Below, piece after piece: positions 25,414 to 64,000 of a stretch of 64,000 nucleotides of DNA. This DNA comes from Bacillota bacterium. GTDB lineage: Bacteria > Bacillota > Clostridia > Christensenellales > Aristaeellaceae. Every line of letters begins with the position of its first letter. Positions within the stretch are counted from its first letter, which is position 1. The notes under the pieces were generated by a model. The model was not told where the DNA came from, ran no database searches, and saw only the letters and a program-made list of their open reading frames with translations. A program made the position numbers and the translations under genes. The stretch lies in assembly GCA_023404345.1 (NCBI GenBank), contig JAEYCB010000025.1, forward strand, positions 16,221-80,220, in the 5' to 3' direction.

Positions 25414-25929
25414 CTACTCGTTAATGGCCTCGATGCCTAAGCGTGCAGCCTGACGCATACGCTCTCTGATTTTCTCCAGCACCTGCGGTGCCAGCGGTTC
25501 CCAATCACAGTTCTCACAGACGATACGCAGCGGCTGGCGCGACCTATAGGAGCGGGTTGGGTTGCCCGGAAACTTCTGATCTGTCACGTTGGGGGCGTCC
25601 TCGATGGGTCCCAGCGGCTCGACCACATACACCCGCGCGGGCCCCTCCCCCGCCGCCAGCTCCGCAGCCAGCGCCGCGCCCTCCTTGCGGGCCGTCAGAT
25701 AGACGAAATTCGCCGTTTGCCGGCTGCCATAGTTGGAGGTGTGCCCCGGTGTGAGCAAATCGCCGGGCCGCAGGTCCGCCCGCGTACCATGGTAGAGTGG
25801 CCCCGCCTCCCGCACATCCGTGCGCAGGCCCACGGGCGTGAAGGGCCTGGGCGGCTCCCCGCTCATCTCTCCGCTGGTGGTCAGGCTGTTCCAGGCCCGG
25901 GTAAAGTCCGTATCGTCATGTTTCATCAC
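25414..25929 (-). CDS. arr: Rifampin ADP-ribosyltransferase (Arr family)
   Basis: Blocks LYHGTRADLRPGDLL, TSNYGS, FVYLTA, AELAAGEG, VYVVEPLGPIEDAPNVTD and KFPGNPTRSYRSR match Arr-ms/Arr-2-type enzymes as I remember them. There is an N-terminal extension of about 30 aa. Start is GTG 25929 or ATG 25926. Confidence 0.8.
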   Translation of the reverse strand: MMKHDDTDFTRAWNSLTTSGEMSGEPPRPFTPVGLRTDVREAGPLYHGTRADLRPGDLLTPGHTSNYGSRQTANFVYLTARKEGAALAAELAAGEGPARVYVVEPLGPIEDAPNVTDQKFPGNPTRSYRSRQPLRIVCENCDWEPLAPQVLEKIRERMRQAARLGIEAINE

Positions 25930-41905: not shown

Positions 41906-42589
41906 TCATTTCTCCGCTTCCACCACGGAAAATCCCATCTCCCGCAGCATCCCGGCGTAATCGCCGTCCAGATGCATACAGTACACGCCCGCACGTTTTT
42001 CCGGAGGAATACGCTCCGCCAACCGCTTGTAGCAGCAATGTGCCGAAGATTCATGGCTGGCAGTATCATGGTAGAGGCGCGCGATATTCCCGTTCAGATA
42101 CCCATTGGCCACCGCGTCGGGCAAAATGGCCGAATCGCCGCTGAAGTAGATGGTTTCGCCACTGCCGCTGATCAAATAACCAAAGGCGCTCATATCCTCA
42201 GCATGAGGTACCTCCACAGGTCTGGCACTCACAGGGCAATCCGCTTCCAACGCGGACAGGTAGCGGTAGAAACTGGGGGCAATACCTTGTAGCGCCAGCA
42301 TGCGAACCACTGTATCCAACGGATGAACCACGCTCACCTGCATCTTCAGCACGCAATGGGTATAGGAAATCAGCGAAGCAAGCGATCCGGCGTGGTCGGC
42401 GTGCAGGTGGGTCAGCAGCACGTACACATGCTTATAGCGCGTAAGGTCAAAGCGGCGGTACACCTTTTCAAAGGCGCTTTCGCCAAAATCCAGGAAGAAC
42501 AGGTCTCCATCGGCCTCAAAGTAAGCGTTGGTATTGCCCTCAACGGGGTAGAAGGCAGCTCCCCGGCCCAGAAATTTCAGGTCAAGCAT
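41906..42589 (-). CDS. MBL-fold metallo-hydrolase
   Basis: THLHADHAGS metal-binding motif. 227 aa. Confidence 0.75.
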   Translation of the reverse strand: MLDLKFLGRGAAFYPVEGNTNAYFEADGDLFFLDFGESAFEKVYRRFDLTRYKHVYVLLTHLHADHAGSLASLISYTHCVLKMQVSVVHPLDTVVRMLALQGIAPSFYRYLSALEADCPVSARPVEVPHAEDMSAFGYLISGSGETIYFSGDSAILPDAVANGYLNGNIARLYHDTASHESSAHCCYKRLAERIPPEKRAGVYCMHLDGDYAGMLREMGFSVVEAEK

Positions 42590-48131: not shown

Positions 48132-48704
48132 CATACGGGTGGAAAAAGCTTGCGGCCCGGCGGATTTGTGCTACAAACAATTTCATTTCCACCCCAGCCG
48201 CCTGCACGCACCGTACGCGAAACGCATCAATGCCTTTATGGCGTCTGGCATCAAAAAGCAAATCCGACCGCTAACAGCTTCCGAAATTAAGAACATTATT
48301 TGCAAGCGTGGTCATCCCATCATTCCGTGTAGCACACCATATCAGGATGAAATTGCCCCTGCGCAAGACGATGGAGCCTATCTGCACCCTCTGTTCAATT
48401 CCGGCCCCCGGTCACGCAGATGATTCGCAGGCCGGAAATGGGCATGGATGCGCCCCAACTGCTTCTGTCACAAAGGCTTAAGAGGCATTCCCCGCTCCGG
48501 GATGTGACTTTTAAACTGAGAAAAAGAGCAACATAAGCCTGATGTCATCCAAAAATACAGAAATCTTTTTTGCTTCCCGCAAAATTGTGGCAATTCTGTC
48601 TACAAAACAAAAAAGGGGGTTGTCTCATTAAGAGGCAACTCTTTTTTCATACGAAAAAAGCATTCAGGCTATGAAAACCTGAATGCCAGCGGTAAAATGA
48701 AGTT

Positions 48705-49598
48705 GTGCAAAAATCAAATAAACCGCAGACAGATTATACCGCAATGACGAACGGATTTCAACTGGTCATACCACTGGACTGCGAAGTAAATATTGCAAAG
48801 AATTCACCGGTGAGATTGCTCAATGCCGTCATGGAAAGGATGGATTACAGAAAACTGTATGCGGCATACTCCCGACTTGGGAGAATCGAGTACTCGCCGA
48901 AGATTCTACTGAAAATCATGGTGTACGGATATATGCGCAAGCAGATATCCAGCCGTGCGCTTGAAGCATGCTGTCGGGAGAATATACACTTTATGTATCT
49001 GCTTGAGGGACAGCCGGCGCCGGATCACAATACAATCAACCGTTTCTGCAAGAACCTCCTGACCCAGGAGGCAGGGCAAGATATTCTGCGGCAGCTTGTA
49101 TTGCTGCTGCACGAAAGTAATCTGCTCAGTTTTGAAGCCGCCTTCATAGATGGAACAAAGATCGAAGCAAACGCAAACAAGTACAGCTTCGTCTGGAAGA
49201 AAGCAACTGTGAAAAAGACAGACAAGCTGCTGAAGAAAATCCACGAAGAACTTCCGGCAAAGCTTAAGAATGTAAGCATTCGCTTTCATGTTCCGGAGAA
49301 GATTGCTGTCCGGCAATTAAAGAAACTCCGTAAACGGAGTCATGAGCGAATCAAAACAGAAGAAATTGAGTTTGTTTCAGGAAAGGGAAAGAGAAAAACA
49401 CCTCTGCAAAGACTGAGTGAGCAAGTGGATCGGTGGATTGCCCAACTCAAGCAATATACAAATGATATCCATATCTGTGGAAACCGAAACAGTTACAGTA
49501 AAACAGACCATGATGCAACCTTCATGCACATGAAAGAATGCTCTTATTGCCGCTGTTACAACAGGAGTCGGTTACGAAAAGTTAAAGGCGAGATATAG
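48705..49598 (+). mobile_element. IS1182-family transposase, 3'-truncated fragment
   Basis: Blocks NSPVRLLNAVMERMDY, YSPKILLKIMVYGYM, DGTKIEANANKYSFVWKK and SKTDHDATFMHMKE match IS1182-type transposases as I remember them. Similarity ends near 49545, and the DDE catalytic part is missing. Confidence 0.7.
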
Positions 49599-50228
49599 TA
49601 TTTACAATCATCAAGAATCAGAATAACGGGGGCGTCAAGCGAATTCAGAAAAGAATACACATTGGAGCAGATGCGTGAAATTATTAAAAACGTGCGAATG
49701 GTTAAAAATATGACAGACAGAAGGTTTTTGCTCTTATTATCATTGCATCCGCTGAGGTTGGAAGAAGTTTTGGGGCTTAAATGGAGCGATATTGACCGGG
49801 AAAACATGATTTTGCATGTAAGGCGAGCAGTAACTCATCCAACCAGAAATTTGCCGGAAATCAAAACACCAAAAACCGTATCAAGCATCAGAAGTATGAG
49901 CCTGTCAAGAAAAGCGGAAAAAGAACTTGGCGATGGAAATCCAGATGATTTTATAATAGGTGGCCCATCACCATACTCTTATACAAAAGTGAAAAGAATG
50001 TGCGAGAGAATACAAAAAGATATCGGTTTCGAAGAAAAAATAACCCCGAGTCGTTTTAGAACAACAGTATTGACCGATATTTATGATGTAACAAAAGATA
50101 TTAAACAGACACAACTTGCGGCAGGTCACACTACCGCAGCCATGACGCTAAAACACTATATAAAGGGGCGTAAAGAAAATACGAAAACATCGGATATTAT
50201 AGACAGTGTATACGGACAATGCAGCTGA
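49599..50228 (+). pseudogene. Tyrosine integrase, catalytic-domain fragment (N-terminal domains missing)
   Basis: LSLHPLRLEEVLGLKWSDID (box I Arg), TPSRFRTTVLTD, AGHTTAAMTLKHYIK (His..Tyr). The frame opens only at 49599, directly after the truncated transposase. Confidence 0.7.
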
Positions 50229-50391
50229 CATATCCTAAATGCTGAAACCATTGTTCTGTATGCGTTTCAGGACTATATTCTTAAAATAAACTGACACAAT
50301 TGCTGACAAAAAGCAGAATTATTCTAACGAGGTCATGCGTCTTGCAAGTTACAAATTATAATCCTGCAAAATCATGTATAAAATGTCCACA

Positions 50392-52176: not shown

Positions 52177-53969
52177 ATACAAAGGAGCGGCCCATACCCA
52201 TGCACAACCATCCATCCCGTTCCATGAAAACCTCCACGCTCATCCGCCGGTTTCTTCCCTATTTTAAAAAATACCGGGGCATGCTGCTTCTGGACCTGGC
52301 ATGCGCGGCGCTGACCACCGTGTGCGACCTGGTTTTGCCCCTTATCGTACGCGACGTAACCGACCTTGCCGCTAACAACCTCTCCGCTCTTACGGTGAGC
52401 TTTGTGCTCAGGGTGGGCGGTGTGTATGTGCTTTTGCGCATCGTGGATGCACTGGCCAACTTTTACATGGCCTCGCGCGGACACATCATGGGTACTTTCA
52501 TTGAGCGTGATATGCGAAATGACCTTTTCGCGCATCTGCAAAAGCTGGGCTTCGCCTATTACAGCAACGCCAAAGTGGGTCAGATCATGGCCCGCATCAC
52601 CAGCGACCTGTTTGAAGTAACGGAATTTGCCCATCACTGCCCGGAAGAATTTTTCATCGCCGGCATCAAAATCATTATCCCCTTCATCATTTTGATGGGT
52701 GCCAGTCCTGCCCTGACGCTGATCATTTTTGCCATGCTGCCGCTGATGGTGGCATGCACGCGTTTTTTTAACAAACGCATGCGTGCCGTCTTCCGCGAAA
52801 GCCGCCACCAGGTTGGTGAGATTAATGCCCAGGTGGAGGATAGTCTGCTGGGCATCCGCGTGGTCAAGAGCTTTGCCAATGAGCCGGTCGAAATGGAGAA
52901 GTTTCACCGCGGCAACGACGAGTTCGTACGTATCAATCGCCGTAAATACCTCTATATGGCCGGCTTTAACACCTCCACCCGCGTGTTTGACGGGCTGATG
53001 TACATCGTAGTGGTAGTGGTGGGTGCACTGTTTATCATTCAGGGTTCAATCACCGCATCGGATTACATGGCCTATCTGCTTTACGTCAATACCCTCTTGA
53101 CCTCCATCCGCCGCATCGTGGAATTCATGGAACAATTCCAGCGCGGCATGACCGGCATCGAGCGTTTCTGCGAAATCATGGACGAGAAGCCCGATATCCA
53201 TGATGCGCCCGATGCTGTGGAGCTGACCAACGTGCGCGGGGATGTAACCTTCGATCATGTCAGTTTCCATTACAGCGATAACGATAAAAATGTGCTGGCC
53301 GACATCAACTTTCACGTTAACGCTGGTGAAAGGGTGGCGCTGGTTGGCCCCAGCGGCGGCGGCAAGACTACGCTTTGCAACCTGATTCCCCGCTTTTACG
53401 ACGTATCCGGCGGACGGATTCTCATCGATGGTCAGGACATCACCCATCTGACCCAGCATAGTCTGCGTGAAAACATCGGCATGGTGCAACAGGACGTATA
53501 CATGTTCTCCGGCACCATCTTTGACAACATCGCCTATGGCATGCCCGGTGCTACCCCCGAAAAAGTGATGGAGGCCGCGCAACTGTCCGGGGCGCATGAG
53601 TTCATCGTTCAGCTTCCCGATGGCTATCGCACATTCGTGGGTGAACGCGGCGTCAAGCTTTCCGGCGGGCAGAAACAGCGCATATCCATCGCACGTGTAT
53701 TTTTGAAAAATCCGCCCATCCTGATTCTGGACGAAGCCACCAGTGCCTTGGACAACGAAAGCGAGCGTCTGGTGCAGCAGTCTCTGGAAAAGCTGTCCGA
53801 AGGACGTACCACCTTTACTATTGCGCACCGGCTCACTACCATCCGTAATGCCACCACCATCTGGGTGCTGACGGAAAACGGCATTGTGGAAAAAGGCACG
53901 CACCAGGAGCTGCTTGAGCTGGGTGGTATCTACGCCCATCTTTACCAAATGTATACGGAGGTGGCCTGA
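52173..53969 (+). CDS. ABC exporter, fused permease/ATPase (MsbA/multidrug type)
   Basis: Six-helix TMD followed by an NBD with GPSGGGKTT, LSGGQKQRISIAR and ILILDEATSALD. ATG 52173 overlaps the previous stop (ATGA). An alternative start is ATG 52200. Confidence 0.85.
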   Translation: MNTKERPIPMHNHPSRSMKTSTLIRRFLPYFKKYRGMLLLDLACAALTTVCDLVLPLIVRDVTDLAANNLSALTVSFVLRVGGVYVLLRIVDALANFYMASRGHIMGTFIERDMRNDLFAHLQKLGFAYYSNAKVGQIMARITSDLFEVTEFAHHCPEEFFIAGIKIIIPFIILMGASPALTLIIFAMLPLMVACTRFFNKRMRAVFRESRHQVGEINAQVEDSLLGIRVVKSFANEPVEMEKFHRGNDEFVRINRRKYLYMAGFNTSTRVFDGLMYIVVVVVGALFIIQGSITASDYMAYLLYVNTLLTSIRRIVEFMEQFQRGMTGIERFCEIMDEKPDIHDAPDAVELTNVRGDVTFDHVSFHYSDNDKNVLADINFHVNAGERVALVGPSGGGKTTLCNLIPRFYDVSGGRILIDGQDITHLTQHSLRENIGMVQQDVYMFSGTIFDNIAYGMPGATPEKVMEAAQLSGAHEFIVQLPDGYRTFVGERGVKLSGGQKQRISIARVFLKNPPILILDEATSALDNESERLVQQSLEKLSEGRTTFTIAHRLTTIRNATTIWVLTENGIVEKGTHQELLELGGIYAHLYQMYTEVA

Positions 53970-55435
53970 TGAGCATTCAATTTTCGCTCGCAACGTCAGA
54001 GCGTTTTCAGGAGATCTGTGCGCTGTACCAAGATGTGATCCGTGATATGCAAGCCCGTGGCCTCAAGCAATGGGAATGGGACATATATCCCACCCGTGCC
54101 CAGTTGGAGGACGATGTCGCCCATGGACGGCTCTACCTCGTAGAGGAAAGCGGCCGGCTGATCGCCGCCTTCGCTCTGGGTGATGCCATAGAACCCGAAT
54201 ATGCCCGCATCGCCTGGGAATACGGGGTGCGGCCTGCTACGCTGCACCGTTTTGCCATGATCTCCGAGAACTTGGATCTGGCTTCACGAGTATTGACTTT
54301 TGTAAAGGAAGAGGCGCTGCGTCTGGGATATGATAGCCTGCGCCTGGATACCTGTGTGGAAGACCGTCCCATGCTGGAGGTCTTTTCCTCAGCCATGACA
54401 CGTGAGGCGGGCCGCACCTTTTTCGAAAATCCCGGCGTAACCAGCGTATGCTTTGAAGCGCCCCTGAGCGAAGCGTGCCCAATGCTGCCGCTGCGCATGT
54501 ATCCTGCCTATCGCCACGGCGACATGACCCCCTGGGGCGGCGACGCACTGCGCGCGGTCTACAGCCGGGACATTCCCGACGAGCGCACGGGCGAAGCGCT
54601 GGAAATCAGCGCCATCCCGCAGCTGGAAAGCCGTACCGCCGCGGGTGAAACGTTGCCTCAGCTGCTTGAACGGGACGGTGCGCGCCTGTCGGGCGATTAT
54701 GCGGGCAAGGAGTTTCCTCTGCTGCTTAAGCTTCTGGCGGCTCGTGATTCGCTGAGTGTGCAGGTTCATCCCGACGACGCTTATGCCCGCGAGCATGAAG
54801 GCAAGCTGGGCAAAACCGAGGCATGGGTTATCCTCAAGGCCGGGGAAGGCGCGAGCATTCTTTATGGTCTGAAAGAAGGCGTAACTTTGGATGCCCTGCG
54901 CGCCGCGCTGGAAAACGGCGGCGATGTGGAGTGTCTCATCAGGCGCGTGCCTGTGAAGCCCGGCGACGTGTACTACATGCCTAGCGGCATGGTACATGCC
55001 ATTGGCGGGGGTATTTTGCTTTATGAGATTCAGCAGTCCAGCGATGTAACCTATCGTCTATGGGATTTTGACCGCGTCAACGCAGCGGGCGAGAAACGTC
55101 CCCTGCATATCCGTCAGTCCCTGGACGTGATTGTGCCGGGGTTAACCGGACAGATTGCCCACATGCCCGAAAATGACGGCTGTGGCCTGGTCAACTTGCT
55201 GGACGTGCCCGCCTTCCGTCTGGATTGTGCAAACGTTAATGGTGAATGCGAGCTTTCGTCCCAACCGCACGCCTTCCGCATGCTGACGGCCTTGGCCGGT
55301 CTGCTGCTCAGCTGGCAAGGCGACGCTATGGAGCTTAAGGCAGGCGATAGCGTTCTCCTGCCTGCCTCCTGTCCGCCCGTCACGCTGATGGGCGTAGGCC
55401 AGGCGTTGATTTCCACCCCACCTGCCCGCGTATAA
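53969..55435 (+). CDS. Fusion protein: GNAT N-acetyltransferase domain + class I mannose-6-phosphate isomerase domain
   Basis: Residues 1 to about 170 look GNAT-like (..LHRFAMISENLDLASRVLTFVKEEALRLGYDSLRLD..). Residues about 175-488 carry the PMI blocks QVHPDDAYA, KTEAWVIL and HAIGGGILLYEIQQSSDVTYRLWDF. The start overlaps the ABC gene stop. Confidence 0.75.
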   Translation: MSIQFSLATSERFQEICALYQDVIRDMQARGLKQWEWDIYPTRAQLEDDVAHGRLYLVEESGRLIAAFALGDAIEPEYARIAWEYGVRPATLHRFAMISENLDLASRVLTFVKEEALRLGYDSLRLDTCVEDRPMLEVFSSAMTREAGRTFFENPGVTSVCFEAPLSEACPMLPLRMYPAYRHGDMTPWGGDALRAVYSRDIPDERTGEALEISAIPQLESRTAAGETLPQLLERDGARLSGDYAGKEFPLLLKLLAARDSLSVQVHPDDAYAREHEGKLGKTEAWVILKAGEGASILYGLKEGVTLDALRAALENGGDVECLIRRVPVKPGDVYYMPSGMVHAIGGGILLYEIQQSSDVTYRLWDFDRVNAAGEKRPLHIRQSLDVIVPGLTGQIAHMPENDGCGLVNLLDVPAFRLDCANVNGECELSSQPHAFRMLTALAGLLLSWQGDAMELKAGDSVLLPASCPPVTLMGVGQALISTPPARV

Positions 55436-55484
55436 ACGTACGGATATGCCGCTGCCAGAAACGATGCAAAGGAGGAAACCGGGC

Positions 55485-57293
55485 ATGAAGGCTTGGTCGA
55501 AAAGTGCCGTAGTTGCGGCGGGCCTTGGCTACATGCTGCTCACAGCGGCACTGTTTTTGTCCTCGCCGTGGATTCGGCCCGTTCCATCTACGGGGGTCTT
55601 TCTGGCGGTGTTCTCCGCTGCTGTGCTATGGGCATGTACACGCCTCAAGGTATATGGATGGCTGCGTGGGCGTTCGCTGGTTGCTCTGCTGGCAGTGGCG
55701 CTATATGCGTCATTCGCTTCCTTCGGTTACCGGTTGTTTCTCTCTGGTGAGCGTATGCAGTTCAGTGCCGGCCGCATCGGTGTATTTCTGTTAGGCACCG
55801 CCTGGTTTGTGCCGGTGCTGCTGGCCTTGCTTGGGATGCTGGAGCGTACCTGCACGCACATGGCAGCGCGTCAGGAACTGTCTGGCCGTGCCTTACGGCG
55901 TGCCTTTGGATGGCTCTGGGCCGTGGCGATGACCTGTCAGGCCGTAGTGGTAGCCAGTTTCTGGCCAGGCGGTTTTCCACTTGACGCTATTCTCCAGCTC
56001 TATCAGGCGTTTGGGTTGGAACCACTTAACGATTGGCATCCCGTGATGCATACGCTGCTGCATCGCTTCTTTTTGTTGTTCTTCGACCATCCGGGGTATC
56101 TGGTTGCAGTGCAGGGCTTTTTCTTCTCGCTGATCGTAGCGCGGGCCGCGCTCACTGCCTGCCGTTTCGGCGCCCGGCTGCGCACAGTGGCCCTGGGCGT
56201 GGCAGCGTTCTGTCTTCTGCCCAATCAGGTGCTTAGCAACATCGCTCTGCTCAAGGACTTTCCCTTCACCTATGCGCTGGTGTGGGGCACGCTTCTGCTG
56301 ACCGAGCTTGCGCAGAGCCCGGACAGATTACGGCGGCCGGGCTTTATCATTCAGATAGTACTATGCATGTTCCTGGTGGGCGGCCTCAGGCACAACGGCA
56401 TTCTGCCGATGCTCTTCATGGCGGTGGCGCTGGTCGCGGTGGGTGTGCGCCACCGGCGGCTCATCTGCCGGGCGGCAGCGTGCGCGCTGGTGCCCATGCT
56501 GCTGTTGGCGGGACTCAAAGGGCCCATTTACCGGCTGCTTAAGGTAGAACCCAATACGGTGCCCAGCTATGTAACCATGCTTTGTGCCGCAGGGGCCTGC
56601 CTGCACCAAGGTGAAACGCTGTCTGAAGCAAGCGAAGAAAAGTTGGAAACCATACTTTCCCTTGAAGATTGGGCAAGCGGATATAGCCGTTTTGCCGGGC
56701 ATGATCTTTACCGTGATCTTGAACCGTCTTTTATGGAGCGCACGCGTCTTTCACTAACCGAGGTCTTTTCCGTCTACTTGGAGGCTTTGGCCAAGTATCC
56801 TGACATTGTTATCAAAGACCGGCTGGACGGCATGAACCTGCTGTGGGATGTAACGCAGCCAGATGAAAGCTTTAACACTGATTATTCAGATCACGCCTTC
56901 ATCGAATCCGATGTCGGGCTGGTAGTACCGGGTGCGCAGGAGGGAGAGGCTTACCGCAATCCGTCTCTGATCGCGCGGACGTACCGCTGGATCAGTTCCT
57001 TTCCTTTCCCTGGCGAGCCGTTAACTGGCCAACTGCACAACATGCTTTTGTGGCGCTCCGGCGCATGGCTAATTTTACTGTGCGTGCTAATGCTCTACTG
57101 GCTGAGGCGGCGCTTGAGCGGCCTTTGGCTGTGCGCAGCCCCCCTGCTGGGCAACTTGCTGGCCATGGTGCTTGCGTTGTGTCACCAGAGCTTCCGCTAT
57201 GTATATTTTGTGCAACCGCTGACGCTGTGTCTTGTGCTGATAACTGTGCTGTTTGACGCACGGCGGCGTAAAATTGCCTGTACCCACACTTAA
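55485..57293 (+). CDS. Large polytopic membrane protein of unknown function (GT-C-like topology possible)
   Basis: 602 aa with at least 12 hydrophobic helices plus a soluble loop of about 130 aa. AAGGAGGAA SD before ATG 55485. Confidence 0.45.
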   Translation: MKAWSKSAVVAAGLGYMLLTAALFLSSPWIRPVPSTGVFLAVFSAAVLWACTRLKVYGWLRGRSLVALLAVALYASFASFGYRLFLSGERMQFSAGRIGVFLLGTAWFVPVLLALLGMLERTCTHMAARQELSGRALRRAFGWLWAVAMTCQAVVVASFWPGGFPLDAILQLYQAFGLEPLNDWHPVMHTLLHRFFLLFFDHPGYLVAVQGFFFSLIVARAALTACRFGARLRTVALGVAAFCLLPNQVLSNIALLKDFPFTYALVWGTLLLTELAQSPDRLRRPGFIIQIVLCMFLVGGLRHNGILPMLFMAVALVAVGVRHRRLICRAAACALVPMLLLAGLKGPIYRLLKVEPNTVPSYVTMLCAAGACLHQGETLSEASEEKLETILSLEDWASGYSRFAGHDLYRDLEPSFMERTRLSLTEVFSVYLEALAKYPDIVIKDRLDGMNLLWDVTQPDESFNTDYSDHAFIESDVGLVVPGAQEGEAYRNPSLIARTYRWISSFPFPGEPLTGQLHNMLLWRSGAWLILLCVLMLYWLRRRLSGLWLCAAPLLGNLLAMVLALCHQSFRYVYFVQPLTLCLVLITVLFDARRRKIACTHT

Positions 57294-57354: not shown

Positions 57355-58629
57355 TTAGCGGGTCATGATCTGCAGAATTTTTCGGTCAGTTTCCCGCATG
57401 CCGTCACGGCCCAGCTCACCCACATTGCGAATCGTGTTCTCAATACCCTTGGACAGGATACCGTCACCGCCATAAAATTGATGGCCTTTGCGATACATTT
57501 CAAAGCCCAATATGCCCGCATCCACCGCGGAGGCAATCTTGGCAGCACAGGAAGGCTTGGCACCGTCGCACACAATGCCACTAACGATGGCCAGGGCGTT
57601 GACAATGGTGTGGGCCACCGTTTTGTAATCCCCCGTAAGCAGATAGGCGATTCCCGCGCCCGCGCCGCTCCCCGCTGTCACTGCACCGCAGTAGGCCGAG
57701 AGTTTTCCAATGGCCGTTTTCTGATGGATGGCGCACAGGTTGGCCACGGCTAGCGCGCGATAGAGTTCTTCCCGGCTCTTGCCGTATTCGCGGGCGTACT
57801 CTACCACAGGCAAAGACACCGTAAGCCCCTGATTGCCGCTGCCGGAGTTGATAACCACGGGCATCTCGCAGCCGCTCATGCGCGCATCGCTTCCAGCGGC
57901 GGCCCAGGCGCGGGCGCGCACGCGCACGTCGCTGCCGTAGGTGTCCAGGAGCACATTGCCAATGTCCGCCCCCCAGCCGCTTTTAAGCCCCTCAGCTGCA
58001 ATGGCAGTGTTGCACTCGATCTGCCGGTCCAGCACATCGCGCACATCGTCCGGGACGAGGCAATCTGCAAAGGCACAAATATCTTCCACTGTTAAAAGCG
58101 CATAGTCCACTGTCGGCTCAGCGCTTTCCACGCTACCATCTTCGCTGAAAAGAGTATCCCCATCCACACGGATGCTGACGATATGCGTGTGGCTTTGGCT
58201 GATGCGCACGCTGGCCTCATGCTCTCCATTCCACACGGTCACGATCATGTCCAGCAGAACCCCTCTTTCCAGCGGCACCACATCAATGGGTGTTTCTGCA
58301 GCAAAGTGTTCAATGGCCATGATCTGATCCGGAGTGACATTTCCCAGCACTTCCAGGCCAGCTCCCTCGTCACCCGCGACAATGCCGGCGGCCACCGCCG
58401 CACGGATGCCCTTCTGGCCTCCGGTGTTAGGCACGGTGACGCTTTTGACATTTTTGATAATGTTTCCGCTGACCTCCGCGCGCACACGGTCCGGCATATG
58501 GCCCAAAGCGTGCCGCGCCTTGGCCGCGCAGTAAGCCAGGGCAATGGGTTCGGTGCAGCCGGTGGCCGGTACCAGTTCCTCCCGCAGGATGGCGCAATAG
58601 GCCTGATAAAGGGCGTCGTTTCGCTCCAT
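57355..58629 (-). CDS. UPF0597 / serine-dehydratase-alpha-like protein (L-cysteine desulfidase family candidate)
   Basis: MERNDALYQAYCAILREELVPATGCTEPIALAYCAAKA is the characteristic N-terminus. 424 aa. GGAGGCAAAAACC SD region. Confidence 0.7.
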   Translation of the reverse strand: MERNDALYQAYCAILREELVPATGCTEPIALAYCAAKARHALGHMPDRVRAEVSGNIIKNVKSVTVPNTGGQKGIRAAVAAGIVAGDEGAGLEVLGNVTPDQIMAIEHFAAETPIDVVPLERGVLLDMIVTVWNGEHEASVRISQSHTHIVSIRVDGDTLFSEDGSVESAEPTVDYALLTVEDICAFADCLVPDDVRDVLDRQIECNTAIAAEGLKSGWGADIGNVLLDTYGSDVRVRARAWAAAGSDARMSGCEMPVVINSGSGNQGLTVSLPVVEYAREYGKSREELYRALAVANLCAIHQKTAIGKLSAYCGAVTAGSGAGAGIAYLLTGDYKTVAHTIVNALAIVSGIVCDGAKPSCAAKIASAVDAGILGFEMYRKGHQFYGGDGILSKGIENTIRNVGELGRDGMRETDRKILQIMTR

Positions 58630-58794
58630 GGTTTTTGCCTCCTGTTGTAGGATGTTGTAAAAACAGCATATCATAAATCGTCGTGTTTGTACAACCAAAA
58701 TTCATGATTTTGAAATATTTATGTATGTTCGTTTAGATACTGCGGCGTTTTTTCTATCACATATTATAAAAACGATAAATTTTTTTATAATGTA

Positions 58795-58822
58795 TTGACA
58801 AATCAACCGGATGATCTATAAT
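58795..58822 (+). promoter_or_regulatory. Promoter TTGACA-16-TATAAT for the GntR-headed operon
   Basis: TTGACA at 58795-58800 and TATAAT at 58817-58822. Confidence 0.55.
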
Positions 58823-58858
58823 CATATTACTGATAATATCAAACAAGGATAAGGGCAT

Positions 58859-59506
58859 ATGAATAATAGCAAGCCTCTGACCAATCTGATCCATGAGCAA
58901 ATTTACCGGGATGTCATAGACGGCACCTTTTCGTCAAACGACACGCTGACGGAAAGCGCCCTGATTCAACGCTACGGCGTAAGCAAATCACCTGTGCGGG
59001 AAGCGCTCATTTCGCTGTGCGACGAGCGCGTGCTGCAAAGCATCCCCCGCAAGGGGTACCGCATCGTGCAATTTACGCTTGAGGAAGTGCGCCAGATAAC
59101 CGAAACCCGTCAGGCGCTGGAGCTGTTTATGTTTGACAAGGCCTATCCCAGCATGGGCGAGCGGGAGCTGAACCTGCTTCTGGAATGCAATGAACGCATC
59201 CGCGCGGAGGATAGCCCCGAGGTGCCGGCAACCCGGCGCTGGGAAATCAACACGGGTTTCCATCTGCTGCTGGCTTCCTTCGCCGAAAACGACTATATGC
59301 TGAGCCTGCTCAAAAGCACGCTGCGCATCAACGCCCGCGCCGCCACGCGCTACTACGAAAGCATCTATTCCCCGGAGCTGGAGGAGAAAAAGCGCACGCA
59401 TGAACGTTTTATTCAGGCATGTAAGGAGCGCGATTACCTATCCGCCCGCAGCATCCTGATGGACGATACCAATCAATTCTTCTGGTGGGAGGTACGACAC
59501 AGATGA
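58859..59506 (+). CDS. GntR-family regulator (FadR/FCD subfamily)
   Basis: ESALIQRYGVSKSPVREALISL wHTH plus a helical FCD-like C-terminal domain. Confidence 0.85.
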   Translation: MNNSKPLTNLIHEQIYRDVIDGTFSSNDTLTESALIQRYGVSKSPVREALISLCDERVLQSIPRKGYRIVQFTLEEVRQITETRQALELFMFDKAYPSMGERELNLLLECNERIRAEDSPEVPATRRWEINTGFHLLLASFAENDYMLSLLKSTLRINARAATRYYESIYSPELEEKKRTHERFIQACKERDYLSARSILMDDTNQFFWWEVRHR

Positions 59507-60459
59507 ACCAGCGCGAAAGAGTGTTGGCTGCTATCAAGGGACAGCCGGTAGACCACGTTCCCTCGCTCTTCTCTCTTCACTTTCCCAAGGAAGTTTCCGC
59601 GGGCGAAGCCGCCGTGGAGGCCCACATCTCCTTCTACAAGCAAACCGGTGTGGACGTGATCAAAATCATGAACGAAAACCTTGAGCCCGCCATCGGAACG
59701 CTCGGTTCCGTTCAGGACTGGGACAAGGTGCTCGCCTACGGCCTGGACGCCCCCTTCCTGACCCGGCAGATCGACCTGATCCGCCGCATTCTGGATCGCG
59801 CGGGCGAGGGCGTCTACTCCCTGGCGACCATTCATGGCGTGTGCGCCTCCACCATTCATCCCATCGAGGCCGCGCACGGCTATGTGGAATCGCGCCGGTT
59901 GATGTGCGAAAGCCTGCGCAGCGACCGTCAGCGCATGCTGGATGTACACCGCCGCGTAACCGATACCATGTGCCAGCTGGCGCAGGCCTGCATCCGGGCC
60001 GGAGCCGACGGCATCTATTACGCCGCGCTGGGCGGAGAAAAGCATTTTTATACCGACGAGGAATTTGAAACCTGCATCCGTCCCTTTGACCTGCAAATCA
60101 TGCAGGCGGCGCGCGAGGCGGGCGGTCATGTGTTCCTGCACATTTGCAAGGAAAACCTGAACATGGAGCGGTATCGCGGCTATGACCAGTGGGCCGACGT
60201 GGTCAACTGGGGCGTGTATGAAACCGACTACAGCCTGGAAGATGGCCGCAAGTTGTTCCCCGAAAGCGCCATTCTGGGCGGACTGGCCAACCGCAGCGGC
60301 GTGCTGGCCGAGGGCCCGGAAGACGCCATCGCCAGGGAAGTGCGCGCCCTCGTGCAGCAATTTGGCACTCGCCGTTTCATTCTGGGCGCGGATTGTACGC
60401 TGCCTACGGACATACCTTATTCCAGAATAGCTGCCGCGGTGCAAGCGGCTGTTATATAA
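59503..60459 (+). CDS. URO-D-family protein (MtaA/CmuA-like methyltransferase candidate), copy 1
   Basis: 318 aa. N-terminal MNQRERVLAAIKGQPVDHVPSLF is typical of the URO-D fold. LHIC and GADC motifs are present. The ATG overlaps the GntR stop (ATGA). Confidence 0.7.
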   Translation: MNQRERVLAAIKGQPVDHVPSLFSLHFPKEVSAGEAAVEAHISFYKQTGVDVIKIMNENLEPAIGTLGSVQDWDKVLAYGLDAPFLTRQIDLIRRILDRAGEGVYSLATIHGVCASTIHPIEAAHGYVESRRLMCESLRSDRQRMLDVHRRVTDTMCQLAQACIRAGADGIYYAALGGEKHFYTDEEFETCIRPFDLQIMQAAREAGGHVFLHICKENLNMERYRGYDQWADVVNWGVYETDYSLEDGRKLFPESAILGGLANRSGVLAEGPEDAIAREVRALVQQFGTRRFILGADCTLPTDIPYSRIAAAVQAAVI

Positions 60460-60479
60460 ACCAAAAAGGAGGATTTCCC

Positions 60480-61817
60480 ATGAAACGTATCCTGTCTGTT
60501 GCGATGGTGCTGGCCATGCTGCTGTGTACGCTTGTGCTGCCTGCTCTGGCCGAGACCAAAACCTATCCCGACGGTGTGCTCCAGTGGTGGTCCACGGGCC
60601 AGCCGGAGTTTCGCAAGCAGTATTTTGACACCTGGCTGGAAGCGCACCGCGATATCGCGCCTGGCGTCAGCATCGAGGCGACCGCCATTTCCACCACCAA
60701 CGACGGCCAGCAGAAAATCGCCATGTACAACCTCGCGGGCGACTATGAGGCCATGCCCGAAATCCTGTTCCTGGACACCGTCGGCGTTGTCAACATGGCC
60801 ATGAACGACCTGCTGCTCGACGTTACGGATTACTATACCCCCATTGCCGACCAGTTCGTGGACGGCGCGGCGGCTGACGCCACCATCAACGGCGTGATCT
60901 ACGCCCTGCCCGACGCCGTGCGCCCCCAGATGCTGTTCTACAATGCGGCAATTTTCGAGGAGTACGACGTTGACCCCGCCATGATGTCCACCTTCGACGG
61001 CTACCTGGAGGCCGGCCGTCTGCTCAAGGAGCGCAGCAACGGCGAGGTCTACCTCTCCTATGTTGACCCCTCCACCTACACCTGGCGCTACTGGGGCCGC
61101 CGCGGCCTGATGCCGCAGGCCGGCGCCCGTATCTGGGACGACGAGGGCAATGTGGTCATCGGCGAGGACCCCGGTACCAAGCTGGCCCTGGGCTTCTTCG
61201 ACCAGCTGTGCTCCGAGGGCCTGCTCTACAAGACCAACATGATGCAGCAGCCCCTCTACGAAGCCACCGACGAAGGCAAGATCGCCACGTTCTACATCGG
61301 CGCGTTCTGGGATGAATTCATGCGCGGCAACCTGACCAAGACCGTGGGCGACTGGCGCGTCATGCCGCCTCCCGTCTTTGAGGAAGTCGGCACTTCGGGC
61401 GCTCCCGTGAGCACCTATTTCTGCCTGGTGGATACCCATGACGACACCTACACCGACCTGATTCTGCAAATGTGGTACGATTTCGCCACCGACGGCGAAG
61501 CCTACAAGACCTGGGTCAACAAGATGACCGAGATCAACGGCCCCTACAACAACCCCATCTCCAAGGAGATGCTCACCGACCCGTTCTGGCAGGAGCCTTC
61601 CGACTTCTACGGCGGCCAGTCTTTCCGCAAGGCGGAGAGCGACGCTCTGGCCAACCCCTCTGCCAACATGGTCGTAACCCCCAGCGATGCTGAGGCGGAC
61701 GAGATCATCAGCGCGGAGATTGAAAAGTATGTCGCCGGCGAGCAGACCATGGACGAGGCCATCGCCAACATGGACCGCGAGCTTAAGACCCGCATCGGTC
61801 AGGCGCAAATGCCCTGA
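60480..61817 (+). CDS. ABC transporter extracellular solute-binding protein (family 1)
   Basis: Signal peptide MKRILSVAMVLAMLLCTLVLPALA. 445 aa. AAGGAGGA SD. Confidence 0.8.
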   Translation: MKRILSVAMVLAMLLCTLVLPALAETKTYPDGVLQWWSTGQPEFRKQYFDTWLEAHRDIAPGVSIEATAISTTNDGQQKIAMYNLAGDYEAMPEILFLDTVGVVNMAMNDLLLDVTDYYTPIADQFVDGAAADATINGVIYALPDAVRPQMLFYNAAIFEEYDVDPAMMSTFDGYLEAGRLLKERSNGEVYLSYVDPSTYTWRYWGRRGLMPQAGARIWDDEGNVVIGEDPGTKLALGFFDQLCSEGLLYKTNMMQQPLYEATDEGKIATFYIGAFWDEFMRGNLTKTVGDWRVMPPPVFEEVGTSGAPVSTYFCLVDTHDDTYTDLILQMWYDFATDGEAYKTWVNKMTEINGPYNNPISKEMLTDPFWQEPSDFYGGQSFRKAESDALANPSANMVVTPSDAEADEIISAEIEKYVAGEQTMDEAIANMDRELKTRIGQAQMP

Positions 61818-61828
61818 ACCATGAACAT

Positions 61829-61864
61829 GCGGCATGGAGAGCGGCGCGCCGCTCTCCATGCCGC
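61829..61864. repeat. Perfect 36-bp GC-rich palindrome (18-bp arms) in the SBP/URO-D intergenic spacer
   Basis: GCGGCATGGAGAGCGGCG|CGCCGCTCTCCATGCCGC, read directly. No adjacent U tract. Confidence 0.9.
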
Positions 61865-61899
61865 CGCGCATGCATGATAAAGAAAGGAACGAATGGAGT

Positions 61900-62886
61900 A
61901 TGAACAAAAAAGAACGCCTGATGGCGGTTTTGAACCACCAAAAGCCCGATCGTATCCCGGTGGGATTCTGGTTTCATTTTGAGGGCGAGCAGGCCAGGGG
62001 CGATGCCTGCGTGCAGGCGCATGTGAATTACTACCGTGAATCGGGCATTGACTTCATTAAAATCATGTCCGATGAACTGGGCTATCCCCTGCGCACAACC
62101 ATCAGCTGTGCAGCCGACTGGCGCAACGTGGAACCGCTTCCCAAGGACGATCCCTTCTTTGAAAAGACGGTGGAACGCTGCGCCGCCATCAACGCCATCG
62201 TGGGCGATGAGTGCTATACGTTCTATAATTTCTTTTCGCCTTTCAACATTGTGCGTGCGTGCGACGTGTTCACCCCCGAAGCGCTTCAGGGCCGCAGTTG
62301 GGACGAAACCGTCATGGCGCACCTGCGCGAAGATCCCGACGCCCTGCGCCACGCTCTCAACGTCATCGCGGGCGACCTAGCCATTCTGGCGGAGCGGGTC
62401 ATCCGCGAAGGCGGCTGCCTGGGCATCTATCAGAGCCTTCAGGGCGCCGAAAAGGGCCGCATGAGCCGCGAGGAATATGACAGCGTGGTCAAGCCGTCCG
62501 ACATGATCGTGATCAACGCCTTCAACGCTGTCAGCTCCTACAACATTCTGCACATGTGTTCGTGGGCCGGTTTCCCCAACGATCTTGGGTACTGGAAGGA
62601 TTATCCCTGCCGGGTGAAAAACTGGGGCACGGGCGTGGAAGAGCTGTCCATCTGGGACGGCATCTCCTATTTCGGTTCCGATACGGTGCTCTTGGGCGGC
62701 CTGGACAACCGCCGGGATTATCCTCTCTACTGCGGCAATAAGGAACAGGTTCAGCAGGAGGTGCGCAACGTGCTTGCGCACATGGGGGATACGCCCTTCA
62801 TCCTGGGGGCCGACTGCACGGTTCCCAACACCATTGATCTGGATCATATCCGCTGGGTCATCGAGGCCCTTGAGGCCGGGCTTTGA
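61900..62886 (+). CDS. URO-D-family protein (MtaA/CmuA-like methyltransferase candidate), copy 2
   Basis: 328 aa. MNKKERLMAVLNHQKPDRIPVGFWF N-terminus, with LHMC and GADC motifs. Paralogous to 59503-60459. Confidence 0.7.
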   Translation: MNKKERLMAVLNHQKPDRIPVGFWFHFEGEQARGDACVQAHVNYYRESGIDFIKIMSDELGYPLRTTISCAADWRNVEPLPKDDPFFEKTVERCAAINAIVGDECYTFYNFFSPFNIVRACDVFTPEALQGRSWDETVMAHLREDPDALRHALNVIAGDLAILAERVIREGGCLGIYQSLQGAEKGRMSREEYDSVVKPSDMIVINAFNAVSSYNILHMCSWAGFPNDLGYWKDYPCRVKNWGTGVEELSIWDGISYFGSDTVLLGGLDNRRDYPLYCGNKEQVQQEVRNVLAHMGDTPFILGADCTVPNTIDLDHIRWVIEALEAGL

Positions 62887-62951
62887 CCGCTGACCTTGCC
62901 CGCGCGTGCCGCTGACGGCGGCCGCGCGGGTACCAGAAGGGGGGTTGCCGT

Positions 62952-63824
62952 ATGAAACAAAGGTTCTGGAAGCGCCATGGCTTCGCCTATCTTGCCATCA
63001 GCCCTTTTTTTATTCAGTTTCTGATCTTCCAGCTCGTACCTACCATAGCCACATTCTACTACAGCTTTACCAACTGGAACGGCATGAAGGAACCTCGCTG
63101 GATTGGCTGGAGCAACTATGCGATGATGCTGGAGGATTACCAGTTTATCGACAGCCTGCGCAACACCGCCCTGTACTGGGTGGTAGGCGTCATGGGAGTA
63201 CTGTGCCTATCGCTGATGATCGCTTCGCTGCTCAACAGCCAGGCGCTCCGGTTCAAAAGCTTTTTCAAAACCGTCACCTTTTTGCCCTATGTATGCGCCT
63301 CCATGGCCATGGGTTTGATCTTCGGCATGCTGTTTGATGAAAATGCCGGCCTGATCAATGCCATCATCGAATCCTTCGGCGGCCAGGCGCTTCCGTGGCT
63401 GACCAGCAGCAAGCTGGCGCGCATTCCCGTACATATTCTCTTCATCTGGCGCACCATTCCCTGGTATACGCTGATTTTCCTGTCCGGCCTGCTGAATATT
63501 CCCACGGAATACTATGAGGCCGCCACTGTGGACGGGGCCTCGGGCGCGCAAAAATTCTTCCGCATCACGCTGCCGCAGCTGAGCAATATCTCGTTTTTCT
63601 GCTTTGTAACCATCACCGTGGACGCCTGGAAAATCTTCAACGAGCCTTATACCCTGGCCGGTCCGGGCTCCTCCAATACCTCGCTGTTCCAGCTGATGTA
63701 TACCAACGCCTTTAAGATTTTCAAAATGGGCTACGCCTCGGCGCTGGGCGTGGTGCTGATCCTGGTGCTGCTGATCATCTCCCTGATCCAGTTCAGGGTG
63801 CGGCGGGCCCAGGGCGAAATATAA
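62952..63824 (+). CDS. Sugar ABC transporter permease (MalF-type)
   Basis: 290 aa with EAA loop YEAATVDGASGAQKFFRITLP. Confidence 0.85.
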   Translation: MKQRFWKRHGFAYLAISPFFIQFLIFQLVPTIATFYYSFTNWNGMKEPRWIGWSNYAMMLEDYQFIDSLRNTALYWVVGVMGVLCLSLMIASLLNSQALRFKSFFKTVTFLPYVCASMAMGLIFGMLFDENAGLINAIIESFGGQALPWLTSSKLARIPVHILFIWRTIPWYTLIFLSGLLNIPTEYYEAATVDGASGAQKFFRITLPQLSNISFFCFVTITVDAWKIFNEPYTLAGPGSSNTSLFQLMYTNAFKIFKMGYASALGVVLILVLLIISLIQFRVRRAQGEI

Positions 63825-63842
63825 GGCAAGGAGGGACCGCGC

Positions 63843-64000
63843 ATGAGTTATCGCACCAAGAAAAATCTCTGGAAGCTGCTGGTCTACCTGCTGATGGCCG
63901 TAATCGTCGTGATTTGCCTGTTTCCCGTCGTATGGTCGTGCATCATTTCCATCAAGAGCGTAGGCGAAAAAGTGTCCGGTTTCAGCGCGCTGACCATCAG
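63843..64000 (+). CDS. Sugar ABC transporter permease (MalG-type), 5' part only (runs off the window)
   Basis: ATG 63843 after an AAGGAGGGA SD. It translates MSYRTKKNLWKLLVYLLMAVIVVICLFPVVWSCIISIKS..., the typical N-terminus of the second permease. It is absent from the ORF track because no stop lies in the window. Confidence 0.7.
   Translation, partial: MSYRTKKNLWKLLVYLLMAVIVVICLFPVVWSCIISIKSVGEKVSGFSALTI

Follow-up and report, generated by a model that had tools for sequence, protein, structure and literature searches.

A predicted zinc-site branch of the URO-D superfamily in a conserved ABC importer module with a cysteine desulfidase homologue and aldehyde reductases

The uroporphyrinogen decarboxylase (URO-D) fold is known for two kinds of chemistry, heme synthesis and B12-dependent methyl transfer. 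The subject of this article is a pair of URO-D genes, URO-D1 and URO-D2, that lie in a CUT1-type ATP-binding cassette (ABC) importer operon on a 64,000-nucleotide stretch of DNA, referred to below as the window, from a clostridial bacterium of the Aristaeellaceae (GenBank assembly GCA_023404345.1, contig JAEYCB010000025.1, positions 16,221 to 80,220 of the forward strand). Among described enzymes, the MT2 methyltransferase MtaA (PDB 4ay7) is closest: the (β/α)8 fold is shared, MtaA is the top Foldseek match and the sole PDB sequence match, the zinc residues align, and the N-terminal segment is similar (RLLAALKGEPVDKVPV compared to RVLAAIKGQPVDHVPS). However, identity to MtaA is 17–18%, and the module in which the genes are found has no linked corrinoid protein, no activase and no methanogenic or acetogenic context. 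Its partners are instead a homologue of cysteine desulfidase and aldehyde reductases. The module is an uncharacterized and widespread variant of the zinc URO-D branch in a new functional context.

Several other systems share parts of this arrangement. MetE and epoxyalkane:coenzyme M transferase carry out corrinoid-free chemistry on a zinc-bound thiolate, and the MetE barrels are among the next structural matches; the ligand set of MetE is His-Cys-Glu-Cys. The reaction proposed here would run in the opposite direction to that of MetE, with the thiolate leaving, and URO-D1 and URO-D2 are single small barrels encoded in a catabolic operon. In the smo pathway of Agrobacterium, SmoB reportedly reduces the sugar aldehyde that is left after the carbon–sulfur bond is cut. 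A CUT1 importer and an aldo-keto reductase near SmoB (2.8e-39) are common to both systems, but no sulfoquinovosidase, monooxygenase or flavin reductase is present here, and the sulfur partner is apparently cysteine rather than a sulfonate. The salvage of S-alkylcysteines by CmoO and CmoJ in Bacillus subtilis leads to the same outcome as that proposed below, namely cysteine and an aldehyde, by a route that has its own importer and includes an amidohydrolase step (PMC10863075). It depends on O2 and two flavin monooxygenases, acts on N-acetylated substrates and includes no homologues of URO-D or CyuA (PMC10863075), whereas the module described here occurs mainly in strict anaerobes. The CyuA/CyuP system of Escherichia coli and Methanococcus (PMC12647591; PMC9040844) has in common with the module the iron–sulfur cluster and catalytic residues of CyuA, which would give pyruvate, ammonia and sulfide. 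In place of the CyuP permease for cysteine, the module has a GntR/FCD-regulated ABC importer and an enzyme with the URO-D fold, and the similarity to CyuA is moderate (1.5e-23).

URO-D1 (59503–60459, + strand, 318 aa; PF01208, 4.5e-16) and URO-D2 (61900–62886, + strand, 328 aa; PF01208, 8.5e-13) are 31% identical (E 2e-45) and are therefore true paralogues. Both PF01208 matches are above the gathering score and cover the C-terminal half only. With an AlphaFold2 model of URO-D1 (mean predicted local distance difference test, pLDDT, 95.3), Foldseek ranked MtaA (4ay7/4ay8) first, at template modelling (TM) scores of 0.72–0.75, followed by HemE (TM 0.77–0.79, 13–17% identity) and then by the homocysteine barrels of MetE and MetH (TM about 0.55 for MetE). 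The Pfam matches and the TM scores of 0.72–0.79 for the modelled structure against MtaA and HemE place the family in the URO-D superfamily, with the predicted (β/α)8 fold.

In single-sequence searches of the PDB, URO-D1 retrieved MtaA weakly (E 0.12) and URO-D2 gave no matches; a 59-member family profile retrieved the M. mazei MtaA (4ay7) as its sole match (E 7.8e-4). HemE chains were retrieved from the PDB neither by phmmer nor by this profile, and the N-terminal HemE signature PxWxMRQAGR is absent from both proteins. Because the RQAGR motif is missing, no HemE sequence is matched and the neighbouring genes are of transport and catabolic types, URO-D1 and URO-D2 are judged from their sequences not to be HemE. 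The NCBIfam models for MtaA and CmuA (TIGR01463 and NF004889) gave 32–37 bits for URO-D1 and 20–23 bits for URO-D2. Since these scores are about a tenth of the cut-offs, which lie at 235–244 bits, the family is assigned to a separate branch of the superfamily rather than to the orthologues of MtaA.

The predicted zinc site consists of His213, Cys215, Glu240 and Cys298 in URO-D1, invariant in 59 of 59 members from both subfamilies, and of His218, Cys220, Glu247 and Cys306 in URO-D2. Motifs of the LHIC/LHMC type and GADC occur in both proteins. In a HMMER alignment H213, C215 and C298 of URO-D1 fall on the H-x-C and C of MtaA that we take, with provisional numbering, to be its zinc ligands, and E240 (E247 in URO-D2) is the counterpart of the fourth ligand in MtaA and MetE. 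A His-x-Cys...Glu...Cys zinc site is thereby predicted to be shared with MtaA. An initial annotation of this DNA, made from the sequence alone, had matched the LH(I/M)C and GADC motifs to the zinc site of MT2/MtaA-type methyltransferases rather than to HemE. That reading is borne out by the alignment on the MtaA positions and the absence of RQAGR; the proteins neither lack the predicted ligand residues nor match HemE in the PDB sequence searches.

The surroundings of the two genes were compared at 80 loci for URO-D1 and 85 for URO-D2, 165 loci and about 2.35 Mb in all. No corrinoid protein, activase or conserved glycosidase was seen in these 165 loci by motif search in the first 80 and by clustering of neighbours. 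The B12-binding motif DxHxxG...SxL...GG was not found in 1150 neighbouring open reading frames (ORFs) from the first 80 loci or in the six frames of the window, and no unexplained conserved neighbour cluster was left across the 165 loci. The test for B12 proteins thus comprised a motif search and the absence of a conserved neighbour family, both at the loci themselves. Downstream of the window, the extension of the operon (within 10 kb) contained no corrinoid protein, activase or glycoside hydrolase. At the compared loci the URO-D1/URO-D2 family is corrinoid-unlinked.

Neighbour shares were calculated for loci flanked on each side by 5 kb or more of sequence, counting genes within 8 kb (n=50 for URO-D1 and n=20 for URO-D2). 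Around URO-D1, a GntR/FCD regulator is present in 82% of loci, a CUT1 binding protein in 76%, both permeases in 68%, an SDH_alpha (CyuA-like) protein in 46% and a Dpp-type peptide transporter in 16%. The SDH_alpha protein reaches 70% around URO-D2, where an aldo-keto reductase or an iron-dependent alcohol dehydrogenase (Fe-ADH) is found in 65%, an M20 peptidase in 60% and an M24 peptidase in 25%. The commonest URO-D2 operon encodes the CyuA-like protein, URO-D, a solute-binding protein, two permeases, an M20 peptidase, in some cases an M24 peptidase, Fe-ADH and GntR. The peptidase partners include M20 enzymes, one type being a PepV/Sapep dipeptidase, as well as PepT-like and M24B Xaa-Pro enzymes; the window operon and most of its relatives have the sugar-type importer and no peptidase.

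Most loci contain a single URO-D gene. No enzyme of the module is more constant than URO-D, which in many cases has the CyuA-like protein as its sole enzyme partner. The CyuA-like gene frequently lies directly next to the URO-D gene, and URO-D2 homologues usually come after it. Genomes that have the orthologous group of binding proteins contain URO-D1, URO-D2 or both, the window operon being an example of the last, and the two enzymes probably share one class of solute. Three Lachnospiraceae-type loci have in addition an ATP-dependent pair of the hydantoinase/oxoprolinase (lactamase/oxoprolinase) type and a Dpp system. Two Paenibacillus species have the gene order URO-D, a Cys_Met_Meta_PP lyase, a two-component system, a solute-binding protein, two permeases and an aldo-keto reductase, so that a pyridoxal phosphate (PLP)-dependent Cys/Met lyase takes the place of the CyuA-like protein. 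Since the arrangement recurs in dozens of species, chance adjacency is excluded, and the order of URO-D, binding-protein and permease genes noticed in the window proved to be conserved in related genomes.

The CyuA-like gene of the window (57355–58632, − strand) is transcribed divergently from the operon and is functionally part of the conserved module. Its 425-aa product is a homologue of the [4Fe-4S] L-cysteine desulfidases (Pfam SDH_alpha, 2e-62); no NCBIfam model matches it, and its sole sequence relatives in the PDB are the L-cysteine desulfidases 9he0/9fsl, matched over the full length. ComF/MJ1681, another CyuA homologue, is said to act on a cysteine–aldehyde thiazolidine. In the Methanococcus enzyme (MmCyuA), Cys287, Cys329 and Cys336 bind the cluster, Cys23 and Glu25 are catalytic, Arg223 and Asn239 lie at the carboxylate site, Lys339 is a further defining residue, and the thiol of the substrate is bound to the unique iron of the cluster (PMC12647591). 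All cluster and catalytic residues of MmCyuA, including the Cys and Glu of GCTE, are kept in the window protein when it is aligned to 9he0. Because it resembles CyuA with all of these residues retained, its substrate is most likely free L-cysteine or a very similar compound. The replacement of this protein by a PLP-dependent Cys/Met lyase in Paenibacillus also points to cysteine.

In the window the operon begins with a 215-aa GntR-family regulator with an FCD effector domain (58859–59506, + strand; PF00392, 1.7e-13; PF07729, 1.1e-11), the TGA stop of which shares the sequence ATGA (59503–59506) with the start codon of URO-D1. URO-D1 is followed by an exported CUT1-type solute-binding protein of 445 aa (60480–61817, + strand; PF01547, SBP_bac_1, 4.2e-09), with a signal peptide ending ...LPALA/ETK. 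A perfect 36-bp palindrome (61829–61864, + strand) separates its gene from URO-D2, after which come ABC permease 1, of the MalF/UgpA type and 290 aa in length (62952–63824, + strand; PF00528, 4.6e-14; NCBIfam UgpA, 4.5e-30), and ABC permease 2, of the MalG/UgpE type (from 63843, + strand, cut by the window end at 64000; UgpE, 1.1e-35). Both permeases match PF00528 (BPD_transp_1) and have UgpA/UgpE and MalF/MalG matches. An SBP_bac_1 protein together with MalF- and MalG-type permeases assigns the importer, at the level of sequence families, to CUT1.

The end of the operon was read from identical contigs in public assemblies (L001–L006). Past the window, the full 279-aa permease 2 is followed, 0.7 kb beyond the window end, by a 304-aa aldo-keto reductase that closes the operon, and then by a convergent LeuA-like gene. 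Where the initial annotation had looked ahead to genes for a corrinoid protein, activase, ATPase or glycoside hydrolase, this reductase was found instead. No ATPase gene is present in the operon, including the extension; CUT1 operons without their own ATPase are common in Firmicutes and are served by a shared ATPase of the MsmX type. The elements that had been listed from the sequence, from the overlapping GntR stop and URO-D start through the binding protein, the palindrome and the second URO-D gene to the two permeases, are all in place. That description did not extend to two partners, the CyuA-like gene, which lies outside the coordinates it covered, and the aldo-keto reductase.

The best PDB relatives of the binding protein are the sugar-binding proteins 6h0h/6q5g (1e-13), and there is a weak match to SmoF. 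In other genomes Dpp-type importers accompany orthologous enzyme pairs under the same operator. The aldo-keto reductase of the operon has its best PDB matches in YdhF of E. coli (1og6, 2.7e-44) and in 7bby (2.8e-39). PMC8795539 names 7BBY together with SmoB, which reportedly reduces 6-oxo-glucose in the sulfoquinovose monooxygenase pathway. Reductases from three unrelated lineages occur in the module: the YdhF/SmoB-like enzyme of the window, an alternative aldo-keto reductase of the YghZ/Kv-beta-like type, and a YqhD-like Fe-ADH (2.8e-78). The recruitment of three unrelated reductases suggests that an aldehyde is a co-product.

Between the CyuA-like gene and the operon lies a consensus sigma-70 promoter, TTGACA-16-TATAAT (58795–58822, + strand; 12 of 12 hexamer positions match), followed by the palindrome ACTGATAATATCA, which is placed between the −10 box and the start codon of GntR. 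A motif search delimits the probable GntR/FCD operator at 58829–58843, with the core TGATA-A-TATCA at 58831–58841, the sole match within the 64-kb window. In the 2.35 Mb of related loci TGATA-N-TATCA occurs 36 times, compared to about 2 expected, and nearly all of the sites are 16–100 nt upstream of the first module gene, be it GntR, URO-D, the CyuA-like gene or a Dpp permease. The palindrome stands at the promoter in 47 of the 165 related loci, and in many taxa its place is between the −10 box and the leading module gene. The sites span several families of Clostridia as well as Spirochaetales (loci L010–L147); the motif precedes the CyuA-like gene in some genomes and Dpp permease genes at three loci (L043, L068 and L083). 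Because the motif is over-represented and stands just upstream of the first module genes, the conserved palindrome ACTGATAATATCAGT is very probably the site at which GntR/FCD acts, and it marks out a small regulon. Its position before Dpp permease genes brings peptide-type importers into the same regulon. GntR/FCD regulators commonly sense organic acids.

The operon is present in chicken-gut metatranscriptome assemblies from four runs, in which the binding-protein segment has the highest depth, 2–5 times that of its neighbours; contig depth is a weak measure of expression, and carry-over of DNA is possible. In four of four runs RNA contigs start at 60435–60439, within the last part of URO-D1, where there is a small GC stem (60433–60449); a sequencing adapter was found at this start in one run. 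Contigs stop at 61878 or 61934, just past the 36-bp palindrome, and one 3.8-kb contig crosses it. These ends suggest a processed or internal 5′ end at 60435–60439 and a binding-protein mRNA that is stable in its own right and has its end at the hairpin. As RNA the palindrome forms a GC-rich hairpin of 16 bp (−38.5 kcal/mol, z −5.1) without a U tract; it is kept at locus L096, and another GC-rich palindrome occupies the same place at L011. An intrinsic terminator is ruled out by the missing U tract and by the contig that reads through. Hairpins that stabilize 3′ ends are common in ABC operons, and this one is probably a 3′ stabilizer of the binding-protein segment and not part of the enzymology.

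Relatives of URO-D1 are found in 565 species genomes. A library of 1.84 billion representatives, clustered at 50% identity, contains at least 434 clusters that score E≤1e-30, rising to 1558 under the looser limit of E≤1e-10. The source annotations for this branch read just "uroporphyrinogen decarboxylase family protein" or "hypothetical". Candidatus Limiplasma pullistercoris, a member of the Clostridia from chicken gut, is 99% identical at the URO-D1 locus, and cultured carriers include Hungatella hathewayi, Enterocloster citroniae, Anaerocolumna jejuensis, Faecalicatena orotica and Paenibacillus thalictri, the last belonging to a genus that also holds relatives. Literature searches on URO-D in combination with ABC transporters, transcriptomics, methylated sugars or cysteine desulfidase gave no description of the module. 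A paper on an MtaA-like "mlp" cluster was set aside, since it deals with corrinoid-linked clusters and the URO-D1/URO-D2 family is outside its scope (PMC10418091).

A URO-D2-like subgroup (46% identical; L092/L093, 9001–9960, and L114–L119) occurs in Candidatus Spyradocola and its relatives and is very common in gut assemblies. Its genes lie beside GH172 and alpha-galactosidase genes, without a CyuA-like partner, importer or reductase, and the subgroup may have a different role. Rare URO-D fusions (P0272, P0299 and P0355) carry an FMO-like domain, a DhaL/Dak2 domain or a response-regulator-GAF-GGDEF protein. DhaL/Dak2 is the nucleotide-binding subunit of dihydroxyacetone kinase, and that fusion hints at a triose-type carbonyl product. 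As a guide to function the FMO-like, DhaL/Dak2 and GGDEF partners give no consistent picture.

The reading that is preferred here, to which we give a probability of roughly 40%, is the uptake and breakdown of a cysteine conjugate, independent of corrinoid, with an aldehyde as co-product. A sulfur-amino-acid conjugate is favored over a methoxylated sugar because the partners are CyuA-like proteins, reductases and peptidases, a Dpp importer stands under the same operator, and Paenibacillus uses a Cys/Met lyase. Of the solutes that would call for just this set of activities, a condensate of L-cysteine and a carbonyl compound is the simplest. The GntR/FCD repressor, acting on the operator that overlaps the promoter, would control the module. 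In the imported solute the cysteine sulfur, or sulfur and nitrogen, would be bonded to a carbon with the oxidation state of an aldehyde. Candidate solutes include 2-substituted thiazolidine-4-carboxylates (sugar– or aldehyde–cysteine adducts), S-glycosyl-cysteine and similar adducts formed by reactive aldehydes. Sugar–cysteine adducts would suit the sugar-type binding protein. The zinc of URO-D1 and URO-D2 would stabilize the cysteine thiolate as leaving group, and the C–S bond would be cut without corrinoid or other cofactor, so that L-cysteine is set free along with an aldehyde or aldose. Cysteine would then be converted to pyruvate, ammonia and sulfide by the CyuA-like enzyme, and the carbonyl product would be reduced by the aldo-keto reductase. 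Peptide forms may, in relatives, first be trimmed by M20 and M24 peptidases, and a Dpp-type importer could stand in for CUT1. The hairpin 3′ of the binding-protein gene would keep that segment of the mRNA more abundant than the rest of the transcript.

Naming the substrate more closely, as thiazolidine or S-glycosyl adducts specifically, is doubtful at present; URO-D1 and URO-D2 might take the two C2 epimers of such adducts. PepP, an Xaa-Pro aminopeptidase, cleaves thioproline peptides (bioRxiv 10.1101/2020.03.19.981027), and an anaerobic gut protist makes thiazolidine-4-carboxylates from which cysteine is freed by an enzyme activity with no assigned enzyme (PMC4222106). Sulfoquinovose, glucosinolates, methylthioribose, S-ribosylhomocysteine, bacillithiol and Amadori compounds were rejected as solutes, since there is no aldehyde co-product, the enzymes are absent or the importer is a misfit.

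The initial annotation had proposed that uptake of a modified sugar is coupled to corrinoid-dependent O-demethylation. URO-D1 and URO-D2 would then be methylcobamide methyltransferases of the MT1 and MT2 types, one role for each paralogue, that demethylate an imported methylated sugar or methoxylated glycoside with a corrinoid protein and an activase encoded elsewhere. This agrees with MtaA as nearest relative, with the retained zinc motif and with the sugar-type importer. It now appears quite improbable: the comparison of the 165 loci revealed no corrinoid protein, activase or methyl-acceptor enzyme, the MtaA/CmuA scores fall far below the cut-offs, and most loci have a single URO-D. Nor does it account for the occurrence of the family in Paenibacillus or for the CyuA-like, Cys/Met-lyase, peptidase and aldehyde-reductase partners and the Dpp importer in the regulon. 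The conserved cysteine-cleaving partner would fit with corrinoid-dependent S-demethylation, in which the methyl group of S-methylcysteine or a methylthio-sugar passes to free cobalamin or to a corrinoid protein encoded in trans and the resulting thiol or cysteine is desulfurized; enzymes of the MtaA/MtsA type bind thiols on the same zinc site. We consider it rather unlikely, as it too has no linked corrinoid partner or methyl sink and leaves the recurrent aldehyde reductases unexplained. The entry of S-methylcysteine through CUT1 or peptide importers would be unexpected, and PLP-dependent lyases cleave S-methylcysteine directly, which would make URO-D superfluous in Paenibacillus.

Dpp importers, M20 peptidases of the PepV/Sapep type, the oxoprolinase-like pair and the CyuA-like enzyme are all parts of known thiol-peptide routes, and the module could be read as a regulon for the catabolism of glutathione, Cys-Gly or cysteine peptides in which URO-D has an accessory part in thiol binding or handling, with no aldehyde adduct. 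The absence of peptidases and the sugar-type importer in the window operon and most relatives, the constancy of URO-D, often alone beside the CyuA-like protein, and the reductases, which again go unexplained, make this improbable. Very improbable is true decarboxylation of a carboxylated sugar acid or amino-acid derivative. The fold is as similar to HemE as to MtaA (TM 0.77–0.79), and FCD-type regulators usually sense carboxylates; against this, there is neither an RQAGR motif nor a HemE sequence match, and HemE lacks the invariant His/Cys/Glu/Cys cluster, a typical feature of the zinc alkyl-transfer branch.

A number of observations also weigh against the breakdown of a cysteine conjugate. 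About half of the URO-D1 loci are without a nearby CyuA-like gene and a reductase is found in just 10% of them, while some URO-D2-like genes stand alone beside glycosidases (L092). The resemblance of the binding protein to oligosaccharide binders is weak (1e-13), and the solute may be a plain sugar; the aldose released from a sugar adduct would have no obvious need for reduction. The loci span just about 20 kb, and a corrinoid protein elsewhere in the genome is possible. Gene calling in the loci was crude, and metagenome loci, including those of the URO-D2 set, are partly near-duplicates. The proposed chemistry is itself deduced from gene neighbours.

The window has some further features. A 171-aa ORF at 25414–25929 (− strand) has a Pfam Arr-ms (rifampin ADP-ribosyltransferase) domain, according to the annotation of an identical contig (L176), and at 41906–42589 (− strand) a protein of the metallo-beta-lactamase fold matches Pfam Anti-Pycsar Apyc1, a cyclic-nucleotide phosphodiesterase type, in an ordinary chromosomal setting. 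A low-GC patch at about 48700–50230 (0.45 compared to about 0.56), with a DUF772 transposase-like gene and a short ORF of the phage-integrase family, looks like a mobile-element remnant; it adjoins a fusion of LacI with a solute-binding protein and another CUT1 system. Two genes lie immediately upstream of the one for the CyuA-like protein; they encode a class I mannose-6-phosphate isomerase (53969–55435, + strand), whose N-terminal extension (about 170 aa) matches no family, and a 615-aa multi-pass protein (55446–57293, + strand) with a weak DUF6020 match.

Taken together, these comparisons define a branch of the URO-D superfamily that keeps a predicted zinc-thiolate site without corrinoid linkage at the compared loci and is tied to cysteine breakdown and aldehyde reduction. 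In its furthest form the proposal is of a new class in the URO-D/MetE zinc superfamily, a corrinoid-independent cysteine-adduct lyase or hydrolase that opens thiazolidine-4-carboxylates or S-glycosyl/S-(1-hydroxyalkyl) cysteines. With the CyuA-like enzyme and the reductase it would be the first anaerobic means of salvaging cysteine that has been glycated or damaged by carbonyls, and would be widespread among Clostridia and Spirochaetes of the gut; to this form we can give little credence as yet. If cysteine is indeed freed from aldehyde or sugar adducts in this way, the family would supply an enzyme for the observed release of cysteine from thiazolidine-4-carboxylates, would represent a further source of hydrogen sulfide in the gut, and would correct the automatic annotation of thousands of genes as "uroporphyrinogen decarboxylase".

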